From the NCBI GenBank assembly GCA_951406725.2, contig OX597829.1, positions 15,066,001 through 15,130,000 on the forward strand: a DNA stretch of 64,000 nt, in the 5' to 3' direction. The position numbers and the translations under genes were made by a program. Shown here piece after piece: positions 6,163 through 54,822 of the stretch (its first letter is position 1; each line of letters opens with the position of its first letter). Under the pieces are notes generated by a model. The model saw nothing but the letters and a program-made list of their open reading frames with translations, was not told the origin of the DNA and ran no database searches. Source of the DNA: Octopus vulgaris. Lineage: Eukaryota.

Positions 6163-6620
6163 AATTGTATAAAGATCATTTTATTATTTCATTTTTTATT
6201 AAAAATAAAACGTGAGTTGATCCCTACATATCCTAGAGTTAAATGCTATGAAATATCGAAGATTCTCACGTGGCACACGAGGAAGGCGTAAACAAATTCA
6301 ATGGTGTCTTGACGCTTTATGTGGAAGAAATGTGTCTGGTCGCTTTGGTGTAAAGGTTAGCACGATTGAAGACTGTAGCAGAAGAGTAATTCAATTCCCG
6401 TGGACGGTTTTGCGCATATTTTTCAATTCCTGATTTGTGTTTATAGAATATCTAATTCAATTTAATTTAATGTTTATATATATATATAAGTTCAGCAAAA
6501 TTTAGATTCGGATGAATATGGTACTTAAGTTAAAGGCAACAGAATTTTGTATGGTATTATCCATATGAATCAAATGGGGGTGATTATAATCAAAATAAGC
6601 AACAAGGATATCCAAGGTAG

Positions 6621-6706
6621 TGTAGTACAATCGTTTCATGCAACTTCATTTTATTAAACACTGCAAGTATTACATCAGTTTCAAAATGTCGAGCAATCTT
6701 CAGCCA
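6621..6706 (-). ncRNA. Type I hammerhead ribozyme motif
   Basis: Reverse complement tgg-CTGAAGA-ttgc...gcat-GAAAC-gatt-GTA-ctaca. Confidence 0.75.
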
Positions 6707-6716
6707 ATCTTTTATA

Positions 6717-6800
6717 TGTGGCTGAAGATTGCTCGACATTTTAAAATTAATGTAATACAGTGTTTAATAAAATGAAGTAGCATGAAACAATTGTACTACA
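6717..6800 (+). ncRNA. Type I hammerhead ribozyme motif
   Basis: tgtgg-CTGAAGA(6722)-ttgct..agcat-GAAAC(6784)-aatt-GTA-ctaca; stem I tgtgg/ctaca; palindromic ACAATTGT. Confidence 0.8.
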
Positions 6801-7420
6801 CTACCTTGGATATCCCCGTTGCTTATTTTGATATATATATATATATATATATATATATATATATATATATATATATATATAGTCTCTCACACACACACAC
6901 ACACACACACATACACACATTTATATACAAATGCATATATTTTAATGCAGGCATTAATAAATACAGAGACAGACAAACAGACTGACGGACAGATGAACAG
7001 ACAGATAGACAGAGACAGGCAGACAGGCACGTAGACAGGCGGACACAAACGAAATACTGCTAAGCCTTTCGCCCGGCGCGCTAACATTTCTGCCAGCTCG
7101 CCAAAATAAACGTTAATGTAATCGACCCAGAACCATACTGAAATCGGTGCCCACCATGGCCACAATCCTATGAGATCAACGTAAGAAAACCACAATATTT
7201 TGTCTAAATGCATTAGATTATAATTCACAGATTACTTTCTAATTTGTTAATTGCTCGATATTTTTCACTCTTTACGAACTAGAAATGTTATTAACAGCAA
7301 ACACTTAATGTATATTTAATGAAAGAATAAAAAAAAAACAATTTGTGTTTTATTCATTATTTATATAATTTTGTTTAGGGAACAAAGCTATCAAAACTTT
7401 AAATCTGTTTAATACATTGC

Positions 7421-7938
7421 TATAGTTAAGAGATGAGGAACTATGTACGTTATTTACATTATTTACATTTGACGGATATTTGTCCGATTCTTGTTTATTG
7501 TTAACACGTTTCGGATGATATACCATCCAGCCTTTATCGAGTGTTTTGGGAAAAATTCGAAACAAGGCTCTCATTCTTAAGGTATTTTTCGATGTTGTTG
7601 TTGTTGTTATTATTATTATTATTATTATTATTATTATTATTATTATTATTATTATTATTATTATTATTATTATTATTATTATTATTATTATTATTATTAT
7701 TATTACTATTATTATTATTATTATTATTATTATTATTCAGGTCACTTCCTGGAATCGAACTCGGAATCATGGGGTTAGTAGCTCTTAATCACTACACCAT
7801 ATACCCGTGAGATCAGAACCGGGTTCGAAATTTCTCCAAGATGACACCTGATGAAGTTTGGAAGGTACATCAGCCGAACGTTGTGTTAACAACAAACAAG
7901 ATGAAGACAAATCTCCGTCAAATGTAAATAATGTAAAT
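7421..7938 (-). mobile_element. tRNA-headed SINE-like element with (AAT)n linker, HHR-bearing 3' part and an inverted duplicate of that part
   Basis: Minus head ATGGTGTAGTGATTAAG..GAGTTCGATTCC (7800-7750); (ATT)n 7607-7736; 3' part 7452-7570 is inverted at 7808-7938. Confidence 0.7.
7843..7887 (+). ncRNA. Degenerate hammerhead motif
   Basis: gacac-CTGATGA-a..cagcc-GAAC-GTT-gtgtt (one A lost). The inverted partner at 7504-7544 keeps GAAAC but has a mutated core. Confidence 0.6.
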
Positions 7939-8194
7939 GATTTTAAAATGTTTGTTTATTTTTTAAATTTTTTATCCTTTTACAAGTAATTGTTTACATT
8001 CGATAAGGACAAATGGTAATGGTTTATAGGGTACATGCAAAACTTCAGGACTGAATAGACACAGCAACGCCGAAACTGCGGTGTCTCAAAGTTCCCTTAC
8101 ACGGGCGATCCGGTCCATCTTGCGTGTTATTAAAACAATTGTCTAAAGGGACAGGACATTTTCCAATGATGAACAAACAACATCGATCAGATAA

Positions 8195-8455
8195 TCACGA
8201 CCGAAGCTCTGAGAACGTATTAAAAGTAGGTAAGTATAAAGGAATTATTTTCATCGTAATTGTTTCTAGCATAGACACAAAGTGTGAAATTTGAAGGAGG
8301 CATGTAACGATATCGTCGACTCCAGTCTTTCTCTGGTAAATTATATTATGAATCATGAAAGAATGAAAGACAAAGATGACCTCAATGACATTTAAAATCG
8401 TAACGTAAAGAGTCGGAACAAGTACCTTAAGATATTTTGTCGACGATCTTACCAC
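8195..8455 (-). pseudogene. Possible decayed LINE reverse-transcriptase fragment (CR1/L2/Rex-like)
   Basis: IYQRKTGVDDIVTCLL...LPTFNTF resembles the QFAY..RGVDDA..LL..DFSSAFNT region; weak, by eye only. Confidence 0.35.
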
Positions 8456-52380: not shown

Positions 52381-52438
52381 TATTAAGCATAACTAGACAG
52401 AGAACTTGATATGTACTTCGTACATATACATGTGCATA

Positions 52439-52640
52439 TACGGTGAGTACCGAAACGTTCCTGGCTCTAAGGCATCGTGAAACGGCCTGGTTGGAAGCCC
52501 AACCTTCCCAGTTCTTTTATAGGACCTAGAAAAACTGAAGGACCGCTGCAATAAGTGTATGAATCTGAGAGAGAAATATGTCGAATAAAATCAAAATTAA
52601 CTGATCAAACTGTAATTTATTTTTACCCCAAGCCAGGAAC
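52439..52640 (+). mobile_element. Mariner-derived MITE
   Basis: TIRs TA-cggtgagtaccgaaacgttcctggct and agccaggaactttcaagcacctcctag-TA; internal KCMNLREKYVE*. Confidence 0.75.
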
Positions 52641-53430
52641 TTTCAAGCACCTCCTAGTATATATACTATGCGCTACCTACTGGAAAATAATTCATATTAA
52701 ATATGACCGGCTATGCAACTAAATTTATACGTATAAAATTATATGTATAAAAACATAGAAACAAATAATTCATATTAAATATGAATTATTTGTTTCTGTT
52801 TTTATGCATATAATTTTGATATATATTTTTTTAATATTATCTATTCACTACTGACTAACCATAGCAACGTCATGGCCTTTCAAATAAATTAGCTGACCAA
52901 TTAAATTGCGTGAATGACAACCACTCCCTCCCAATCACCTATAGGGATTCAGCAACTTGTTAACTATAAAATAACGGGGAAATAATGAAAGATAATACCG
53001 GAGATTTTAAGCATTTACTAATTTAGTACCAACTTCTATTATAAATATTGATATAAACCATCACCCCCAAAAATGGGAACCATGATTTCAGACCCTCAAC
53101 TAAAAAGACATCATATATTTGTGTATATGGATAAGTATATATATGTGTGTACATTTGTTCCTTCATTCATTAAATTATTTATCTACAAGGACAATACGAA
53201 CCACAGCAGGAATACACCTTACTTAACGCATGAAATATGTGTGTGTATATATGCGTATATATATGTATATGTATATATGTATGTATATATATGAATATAC
53301 ATATATATATATATATATATATATATATATATATATATATATATTATGTGAAATAGAAAGATGAATAATCTTGTAGTAGATTAATCAAAAGTTTAACCGA
53401 TACCTTAGTAGCAAAAAATTCACGTCGGCG

Positions 53431-53811
53431 AACTCCAAGATCAAAAACGCCGTCTACCAATGCAAGGTTTACACGGACTCAGATGTCTTCACTTATGTAG
53501 GGGCCTCATCCTCAAGATTGTCTTTGCGTGTCTCCAACCATTACGCAACTTTTCGGGACATGAACAAGCGCCAGACCACGGGACTCAGTAAGCTAATATG
53601 GCGACTGAAGGATACGGACTTAAGCTACAGGCTGGAATGGTCAATTTTGTCGGTGGCCCTCCCATTTGATAGGGGCAGAAGGCAGTGCAACCTTTGTGTC
53701 TCCGAACTCTTCCATATTTTGTTTGCCAGAGGCCGGATGGTAAACGGGCTTTTACAGTCGGCTTTTCGATGCCCCCATTGGCGGCGTTACACTTATCTGG
53801 CTTTTAAATAG
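53431..53811 (+). CDS. PLE GIY-YIG endonuclease domain, 5'-truncated with an open frame
   Basis: KNAVYQCKV..FTYVGAS..LSLRVSNH..TTGLSKLIWRLK..WSIL..CNLCVSE..CPH*, the typical PLE endonuclease C-terminus. The frame is open upstream of the tracked start. Confidence 0.88.
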   Translation, partial: NSKIKNAVYQCKVYTDSDVFTYVGASSSRLSLRVSNHYATFRDMNKRQTTGLSKLIWRLKDTDLSYRLEWSILSVALPFDRGRRQCNLCVSELFHILFARGRMVNGLLQSAFRCPHWRRYTYLAFK

Positions 53812-54395
53812 CGTTTATAAATAATACCGGCACCCATAGCCCTTGGTAACAAATTCTGAAATAGCCTTTAAGATATCTACGATTAACCACTGCAAGGGGA
53901 ATTACTCCTGTAAGACAAACGGGGCTTGGTTTTTTCACAGCGGGGGTTTCCTTGACAAGGCAGGTTTAGATGAGAACACACACACACATAAAACATGATG
54001 TATATTTTTTTCTGCCACCCAACGGTCATCACGGCAGTAGCCACTGACAGCCGAACGATCAAACGCACACACGTACACAAAAAATGTTTTCTACCCCTAC
54101 GCCAACACACACGTATATAGAACAGTATACACACACACACGTCTCTAAGTAGATTTTTTCTCGCCCCTTATAAAACATCCAATATTCCTTAAATAGTCAG
54201 AACTTTATTCTCGGTCACAAAGAACATCTACGCCCCCTCACCCACATGATTGACCGATGCCTGACCCGTTGAATTCTTCAGCCACCGGTTCTCAACATAC
54301 ACTGATAAACAGTTTCGCCATGGGCTCTTAGGAGCATAGTTCGATTTGTTTTTGCTCCGCCTCTGTTCTGTTTTTGTTTTTCCAACGGATTTCCT

Positions 54396-54487
54396 ATTTT
54401 CTTCCTGAAGAGAAAGACACAATATGGTCCCATTATTCCATCGGATTTTGGTAATTTGTGCCTTTCGAAACACGTGTAGAATGAAAT
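54396..54487 (+). ncRNA. Type I hammerhead ribozyme motif in the PLE 3' region
   Basis: ttc-CTGAAGA(54405)-gaaagacacaa..ttgtgcctttc-GAAAC(54467)-ACGT-GTA-gaa; 10 of 11 bp in stem II; palindromic ACACGTGT. Confidence 0.85.
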
Positions 54488-54576
54488 AAAACGATTTCTG
54501 TTCAATCTGCGTTCAGCTCCATTTCTTCAATTCACCAATAATGTTATATATATATATATATATATATATATATATA

Positions 54577-54822
54577 CTTTATTTAAAAGCAGCAGAAAAT
54601 TCAACAAAACCTGTTACTCTGAGTTTCACGTTCCCGTTCGTCGGACAGTTTTTGCTAGAATTCTAGATTCTAGCAAAAACTGTTCGACGAACGGGAACGT
54701 GAAACTCAGAGTAACAGGTTTTGTTGAATTTTCTGCTGCTTTTAAATAAAGCATATTACTCTACCACTGGTATTTGAGTACTCTTTTTTCCACCTTATTC
54801 CACATTTATGTGTTTACTCCGG
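54577..54822. mobile_element. Near-perfect fold-back mini-element in (TA)n with two hammerhead motifs
   Basis: Arms 54577-54661 and 54667-54751, tail 54752-54822. ctgt-(C/T)CGACGA-acg-ggaa-cgt-GAAAC-tcaga-GTA-acag at 54611-54648 (-) and 54680-54717 (+). Confidence 0.88.

Follow-up and report, generated by a model that had tools for sequence, protein, structure and literature searches.

For endonuclease-bearing (EN+) Penelope-like elements (PLEs), an insertion layout has been published, in which a 5'-truncated copy that carries a tail is joined to an inverted copy that lacks it (Craig et al. 2021, PMC8557442 Fig. 2; Arkhipova et al. 2013, PMC3846280), and opposite-strand pairs of hammerhead ribozymes derived from truncated PLEs, about 100-700 bp apart and of low activity in vitro, were reported in 2014 (PMC4209133). 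How PLEs form inverted copies and tails is named as an open question in PMC8557442. For an anole PLE examined in vitro, reverse transcription initiated internally at two sites that bound the tail, and ribozyme cleavage was not needed for insertion (PMC11167929). Here we analysed five fold-back loci in a 64,000-nt stretch of the Octopus vulgaris genome (contig OX597829.1, positions 15,066,001 to 15,130,000, hereafter the window), which the original prediction had interpreted as a non-autonomous ribozyme system driven by PLEs. We conclude, with a probability of about 0.85, that the five loci are the end-repeats, or pseudo-long terminal repeats (pLTRs), of four PLE families laid head-to-head, each likely the outcome of one insertion event and a short, mostly dead-end product. 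The headline pattern is the known PLE insertion pattern and not a new system.

The window is 34% GC and rich in microsatellites. Inverted pairs were sought by self-BLAST of the repeat-masked window, and searches were run against the 2.8-Gb genome of 227 contigs. By this approach, inverted arms were found at all five of the named loci, always head-to-head and with a tail on one side only, as predicted. The arms are 88% identical at 6489 (6589-6832), 78% at 7421 (7452-7561/7824-7938) and at 17030 (17115-17352/17529-17738), 96% at 45389 (45385-45640/45777-46031) and 97% at 54577 (54572-54756). Tail lengths of about 100, 30, 85-95, 112 and 71 nt at 6489, 7421, 17030, 45389 and 54577, respectively, agree with the 30-115 nt first proposed, and (TA)n was confirmed on both sides at 6489, 45389 and 54577. 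The families are labelled A (45389), A' (6489), B (7421), C (17030) and D (54577), and their arms in the window are as follows.

6489..6706, minus strand: A' main arm, a 5'-truncated pLTR with a minimal type-I hammerhead (core 6703) and a tail of about 100 nt (6489-6590) ending in (TA)n; 71% identical to the A pLTR plus tail.
6713..6832, plus strand: A' inverted arm without tail; hammerhead core 6722.
7421..7815, minus strand: B main arm, with a tRNA-like head (about 7745-7813), (AAT)n (7607-7737), a decayed hammerhead core (about 7540) and a tail of about 30 nt.
7816..7938, plus strand: B inverted arm without tail; core 7848, its GAAA box short of one A.
17018..17351, minus strand: C main arm, which belongs to a 456-nt tandem unit; hammerhead core 17323; tail at about 17018-17114.
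17352..17528, no strand: C inter-arm microsatellite of (TA)/(TG)/(TATG).
17529..17738, plus strand: C inverted arm without tail; hammerhead broken by a deletion through GAAA.
45389..45795, minus strand: A inverted arm without tail, 407 nt of 3' untranslated region (UTR) and pLTR; hammerhead core 45503.
45795..46144, plus strand: A main arm; hammerhead core 45914; 112-nt tail running into (TA)n.
54577..54661, minus strand: D arm without tail, complete to a fixed 5' boundary; variant core (U4C, U7C) at 54644.
54662..54822, plus strand: D main arm; core with C3U; 71-nt tail (54752-54822) running into (TA)n.

Each arm consists of pLTR sequence, one arm ending at the outer edge of the tail and the other at its inner edge, and the suggestion that the loci are extremely truncated PLE products was borne out. 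Parents bearing an open reading frame (ORF) with reverse transcriptase (RT) and GIY-YIG endonuclease (EN) were found for A, B and D, in all three as a single ORF in which RT precedes a C-terminal GIY-YIG, together with the inverted 5'-truncated copy and one-sided tail of EN+ PLEs; C is an ORF-less tandem unit. The earlier statement that the elements have no ORF therefore applies to the copies in the window, whereas families A, B and D do include ORF-bearing members. Pfam scans of the parent frames returned no family, and the RT and EN of A, D and B were assigned by motifs in the translations. Junctions are placed at widely differing positions, and the same junction turns up in more than one subfamily, the tail being on one side or the other. 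Because junctions form anew at insertion and both hammerhead cores are intact at only two of the five loci (6489 and 45389), the fold-backs are regarded as mostly dead-end products and not as a ribozyme system. The idea of a non-autonomous system proved mostly wrong, as three families have autonomous-type parents and junctions vary; C alone among the families looks truly non-autonomous.

In the 30 best genomic matches to A, the inverted arm, where present, has a constant end point, beyond which the main arm continues for another 112 nt into (TA)n; the 5' ends are variable. Two of four long copies (L062 and L063) hold the parental frame with RT (DKTG, YRDD), a Cys-rich linker and GIY-YIG/CCHH, followed by a 1.6-kb 3' UTR; L062 spans 4.2 kb and has an inverted copy of 1040 nt at its 5' end. 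A long asparagine-rich insert like those in rotifer Penelopes was also seen between RT and EN in the A ORF (L062:5878-8067). The Cys-rich linker and CCHH-type residues are common to A and D, with a spacing of CxC-x5-C-x5-C versus the CX2-5CxxC given for the Neptune/Nematis clades (PMC8557442). The exact A core motif has 148 matches genome-wide, and the first 100 of these form 28 head-to-head and no tail-to-tail pairs; 5' extents in the first 30 range from 7 to 1403 nt and are unclustered. Judged from match positions only, one same-strand pair of A pLTRs lies 4599 nt apart. The complex A' junction (window 6700-6722) recurs at one unlinked place only, G000:C3:74703811 (2 exact matches), which hints at occasional re-copying of a fold-back.

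A parentless origin of the D mini-element was considered and overturned by a longer parental upstream form with 855 exact matches and by a full element, L176, in which a pLTR with tail is followed by a 727-aa open frame, a 3' UTR and a tail-less pLTR; at E<=1e-20, 915 homologues of the L176 frame were counted among 8000 scored, one of them with PF01541. One D fold-back junction has 136 exact genomic matches. Of the first 30 of these, 5 had deletions or truncation and were set aside; in the 25 that could be scored, arms of one copy differ by 1.08 nt and arms of different copies by 2.77 nt, and none of 10000 permutations gave a within-copy value as low. Among the same 30 copies the tail lies on the left in 10, on the right in 17, on both sides in 1 and on neither in 2, and this junction is present in three core variants or subfamilies. 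Thus, the D fold is created at insertion and not inherited, because the arms match within a copy, the junction spans core variants and the tail occurs on either side. The D motif 3' of the cut site has 9252 exact matches, and 33 head-to-head pairs versus 1 tail-to-tail pair were counted among the first 100 listed. The D mini-element at 54577 sits in the (TA)n that ends a fifth PLE remnant (53380-54544, plus strand), composed of a GIY-YIG/CCHH frame (53380-53811, with GIY-YIG at 53440-53808), a 3' UTR and a minimal hammerhead at 54405.

The 5' ends of D arms show a sharp boundary. When the first 100 arms in genome order were compared, 40 ended at 1-46 nt, 35 at 47-53 nt, 9 at 54-199 nt and 16 at 200 nt or more, a few values being distorted by alignment at junctions, and the peak at 47-53 nt has a binomial P of about 1e-24 against the upstream rate. 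In an overlapping, upstream-anchored sample, 44 of 100 arms ended within 0-6 nt of the same boundary. This 7-nt window lies 13-18 nt upstream of the core and coincides with a match to the initiator-like consensus YYANWYY, the A of which is at the longest common end; non-inverted D copies also begin there. Two other sources of these ends were discarded. A splice acceptor was rejected, as the copies retain the AG and upstream bases; the motif search required these bases, and the peak was unchanged in a sample whose motif did not demand the AG. Ribozyme cleavage was rejected as their source, as the cut site is at 5 and no 5' end at 4-8 nt was detected among the 100 arms. In two of 60 D arms (L193 and L204), the hammerhead body is deleted between the helix I strands, as if RT had jumped the folded helix.

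The ribozymes themselves were examined by motif, covariation and folding analyses. A relaxed descriptor of the minimal type-I hammerhead returned 6 motifs in the window, whereas 100 block shuffles had a mean of 0.06 and a maximum of 2. Named loci account for five of the six (6703 minus, 6722 plus, 45503 minus, 45914 plus and 54644 minus), and the hammerhead at 17323 on the minus strand was picked up by a different descriptor. Rfam reported no hammerhead among 150 listed of 312 window matches (E<=1), nor in 4 parent loci, the listed matches being microRNA models on simple repeats and hairpins. The original prediction of type-I hammerheads in both arms, with one partner decayed at 7421 and 17030, held in part: damage was found at both loci, but at 7421 it affects both arms (the minus core decayed, the plus core lacking one A of GAAA), and at 54577 both cores are variant (C3U on the plus, U4C/U7C on the minus arm); at 17030 the GAAA of the plus arm was removed by deletion. 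The proposed check for stem covariation was favourable, as 98.3% of the cells in helices I-III were paired across A and A' (16 sequences; slid controls 18-55%) and three pairs had a family-wide two-sided change, so that helices are kept via compensatory changes; this is a single divergence between two families, with the structure derived from the same sequences. Monomer folding gave z values between +0.5 and -2.0 for four window hammerheads and the L176 copy. A fold-back transcript holds one sense ribozyme, predicted to be paired end to end with the antisense arm (-154.9 kcal/mol). Double self-cleavage of one hairpin would be unlikely, because the sense ribozyme is predicted to be fully paired with the other arm. 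The expectation of self-cleavage sites on both strands thus fared poorly: each transcript has one sense ribozyme, predicted to be buried, and 0/100 D arms end within 1 nt before to 3 nt after the cut site. The paired ribozymes would be passengers. Putative long double-stranded RNA hairpins from fold-back transcripts are possible.

Family B ends in a tRNA-like head, (AAT)n, a hammerhead and a 30-nt tail, and its ORF is of the Penelope/Poseidon type, with RT and EN. The head was found, at least partly, downstream of the ORF in 30/30 ORF-bearing copies, with a pLTR match downstream in 26/30, and a junction of pLTR, tail and ORF was detected in 7/30 loci, so the pLTR stands on both sides of the ORF. 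Two of the seven include the head and start exactly there with unrelated flank. Short B copies are SINE-like (resembling short interspersed elements, SINEs); an independent SINE was ruled out, as the head belongs to an ORF-bearing, autonomous-type element (30/30). The B tail motif has 4741 exact matches genome-wide. In the first 30 tail-anchored loci, 25 have an inverted partner and the main arm reaches the ORF in only 2; target-site duplications of 8-13 bp were found at some B loci. When arms were anchored at the head, 25 of 30 ended 2-16 nt upstream of the searched motif, which is at or within 8 nt of the first base of the head. The (AAT)n of the B pLTR often holds inserted 3' ends of other retroelements (L073, L078, L087, L129, L143).

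The B head aligned best to genomic tRNA-Arg(TCG) among 30 tRNA matches (z 7.2 versus shuffles). Rfam gave no tRNA match to the head, and ARAGORN called 0/30 heads at default and 2/30 at the 90% threshold. Runs of four thymines (T4) were absent from 12 of 18 head-to-tail stretches and from the 2.5-kb sense strand of the B majority sequence, where 2.8 are expected (P 0.03, uncorrected); this avoidance is weak, since an equal P is obtained for A, which contains 4 runs, and 2 runs occur in 1.5 kb of a control family. A probable role of the tRNA-like head is that of promoter of the short SINE-like copies, which number in the thousands, and the fixed RNA 5' end of B is possibly an RNA polymerase III (Pol III) start. 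A broader scheme is offered only tentatively, and we consider it doubtful: B would be a Penelope/Poseidon element with a captured tRNA-derived Pol III promoter in its pLTR, Pol III transcripts initiated at the head would supply the Penelope protein with SINE-like hammerhead copies by the thousand and might extend through the entire ORF, D-type minis would be strong-stop products, and fold-back centres would mark the transcription start.

Family C differs from the others in its tandem organization. The sequence upstream of its ribozyme is the sequence downstream of its tail in many of 30 loci, and the dimer, with same-strand matches 456 nt apart, defines a 456-nt unit with one type-I hammerhead. 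The majority unit (34% GC) has at least 6 stops in every frame. An endless ORF through the unit was rejected, the best frame having 6 stops as in shuffles, and a GIY-YIG ORF beside C in L097 was rejected as its parent, since it belongs to another, GC-rich family. As a circle the unit is predicted to fold strongly (z -5.5 versus dinucleotide-block shuffles). No cluster was detected among the C 5' ends. C fits a putative non-LTR retrozyme integrated with PLE hallmarks.

These features can be placed in one scheme. The PLE protein would nick AT-rich DNA, and reverse transcription would start at two RNA sites bounding the tail. Two cDNAs, one per target strand, would then be joined at their far ends by microhomology to give a fold-back with a single tail. 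In A and C, copying would stop at scattered points; in D and B, most copies would end by run-off at a fixed 5' end of the RNA, a little further upstream, with uniform minis as the result. The D and B boundaries suggest such run-off copying, a step to which we lean with modest confidence. Several observations weigh against this account. Twin priming was not observed, and self-priming accounts for the same junctions (PMC3846280). The proposed search for full-length RT and EN parents gave ORF-bearing parents for A, B and D but none for A' (no attached ORF in 30 + 4 loci, the copies sharing no more than about 800 nt upstream) or for C (no attached PLE ORF in 60 loci, the protein matches of 2 loci lying apart from the unit). 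Some minis may have been re-copied, given the two-place junction of 6489, and five D copies (L046, L049, L054, L060, L203) start with a short fold-back piece after a truncated partner. As to the boundaries, that of D coincides as well with the outer limit of the predicted extended helix I, all four D copies that continue from the pLTR into the ORF extend upstream of it, which speaks against a simple start site, and one of the seven B pLTR-ORF copies (L553) extends upstream with the head deleted.

Assembly artefacts are an extremely improbable source of the inversions. The centre of 54577 was spanned by no listed contig of an independent run, but the arms differ by 1-22%, the tail asymmetry is systematic and many distinct D-family junctions were present in two DNA runs of different studies (15 listed, 91 more), and the concern voiced with the original prediction is not supported. 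It is also improbable, though less so, that the fold-backs constitute a non-autonomous family propagated as entire hairpins by use of its paired ribozymes. Such spread would agree with the 136 exact copies of one D junction, the complex A' junction common to two chromosomes, the five D copies that begin inside the palindrome and the lack of an ORF parent for C. By contrast, the same D junction in three core subfamilies with matching arms within copies and the tail on either side, the wide variation of junctions, the 855 matches to the D parental upstream form, the predicted burial of the sense ribozyme and the retention of both cores at only 2/5 loci all speak against it.

A less improbable alternative, which we nevertheless consider doubtful, is that the fold-backs arise by self-priming on one strand (e.g., an antisense template or cDNA end folding back) and not from two cDNAs. 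Self-priming was proposed from junction palindromes in PMC3846280, short palindromes occur at several of the junctions found here, and private changes are common to both arms of a copy in L183, L184 and L191. Alone, it leaves unexplained why one arm ends at the inner and the other at the outer tail edge, positions that match the two RT start sites in PMC11167929, and the boundary is likewise where D copies without inversion begin. The D and B boundaries may instead be fixed by RNA structure, processing or an RT block rather than by transcription starts, which we judge a credible minority view. The coincidence with the end of helix I, the passage of 4/4 ORF-bearing D copies beyond the boundary and the position of the B boundary at the 5' end of the tRNA-like fold are in keeping with structure; the initiator-like match in D, the published location of PLE promoters in the pLTR (PMC2377424) and the two B pLTR-ORF copies that start exactly at the head favour transcription starts. 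Taken together, head-to-head pLTRs formed at insertion are preferred as the explanation of the five loci. Thousands of near-identical minis record copying end points, and the sharp 5' boundaries offer an inexpensive way to study, from genomes, how PLEs make inverted copies and tails. Should the B head function as a Pol III promoter, a promoter of the SINE type would lie within a PLE that carries an ORF.

Other repeats were found in the window. The presence of PLE RT and GIY-YIG fragments was confirmed by an RT fragment at about 35040-35480 (plus strand), by the GIY-YIG of the remnant beside D and by a C-terminal PLE-like fragment at 29047-29409, which is flanked by direct repeats of 70% identity (28666-29913). 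The RT fragment belongs to a Penelope-type family that is GC-rich (55%) and has a 3' UTR rich in pyrimidines; two single pLTR ends of this family (36780-37000 and 59510-59700) bear motifs resembling hammerheads. An inverted repeat pair of 145 nt (83% identical, 160-nt spacer) at 37198-37643 resembles a miniature inverted-repeat transposable element, and smaller palindromes lie at 32785-32834 and 52757-52797. Short frames at 38787-39789 are, by resemblance, candidate pieces of a Helitron Rep/helicase. One SINE-like family whose members have an internal (CA)/(TA) tract is present in at least 7 copies, as follows.

24263-24632: SINE-like copy with (CA)/(TA) tract.
30223-30613: SINE-like copy with (CA)/(TA) tract.
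35671-36041: SINE-like copy with (CA)/(TA) tract.
44601-44932: SINE-like copy with (CA)/(TA) tract.
60059-60368: SINE-like copy with (CA)/(TA) tract.
61659-61952: SINE-like copy with (CA)/(TA) tract.
63518-63941: SINE-like copy with (CA)/(TA) tract.

Among described systems, EN+ PLE insertion units (PMC8557442, PMC3846280) have in common with the octopus loci the 5'-truncated copy, adjacent inverted copy, one-sided tail and pLTR hammerhead, as well as (TA)n targets, described for Cys-rich-linker families, and target-site duplications of 8-13 bp at some B loci. The octopus loci differ in tail length, about 70-112 nt for A, A', C and D versus 30-40 bp as described, and in the sharp 5' boundary of D and B. 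The hammerheads resemble those of PMC4209133 in that helix III is short and palindromic, helix II begins with a bulged base and variant cores occur, but the helix II region of A and A' is about 60 nt and helix II of D is 2-3 bp with a GNRA loop. Like metazoan non-LTR retrozymes (Cervera and De la Pena 2020, PMC7229834; Li et al. 2026, 10.64898/2026.07.22.740005), C is an ORF-less tandem with one type-I hammerhead and strong predicted self-pairing as a circle; by contrast, its 456 nt slightly exceed the 170-400 nt given, and C occurs mostly as dispersed partial copies with a PLE tail and inversion. The putative tRNA-derived segment of B, with A/B-box-like motifs in a terminal repeat upstream of a hammerhead, is similar to Cassandra, Helenus and Ajax (Kojima 2024, PMC10886601) and to SINE-like hammerhead elements of Schistosoma (PMC6765202), but those are non-autonomous, whereas the B head lies in the pLTR of an ORF-bearing PLE, on both sides of the ORF. 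The literature searched, with Repbase/Dfam, subscription papers and the supplements of PMC8557442, PMC4209133 and PMC13282606 outside its scope, yielded no SINE-type promoter in an ORF-bearing PLE, and the word hammerhead is absent from the main text of PMC13282606. Anole Poseidon PAc (Frangieh et al. 2024, PMC11167929) is similar in its two RT start sites that bound the tail, in products that shorten with the RNA 5' end and, as in B, in an overlap of ORF and hammerhead; its analysis is not known to cover inversion or genomic 5' boundaries. Three features extend beyond the known pattern and make the octopus loci a variant of it: the length of the tails, the sharpness of the 5' boundaries and, in the B pLTR, the tRNA-like head.

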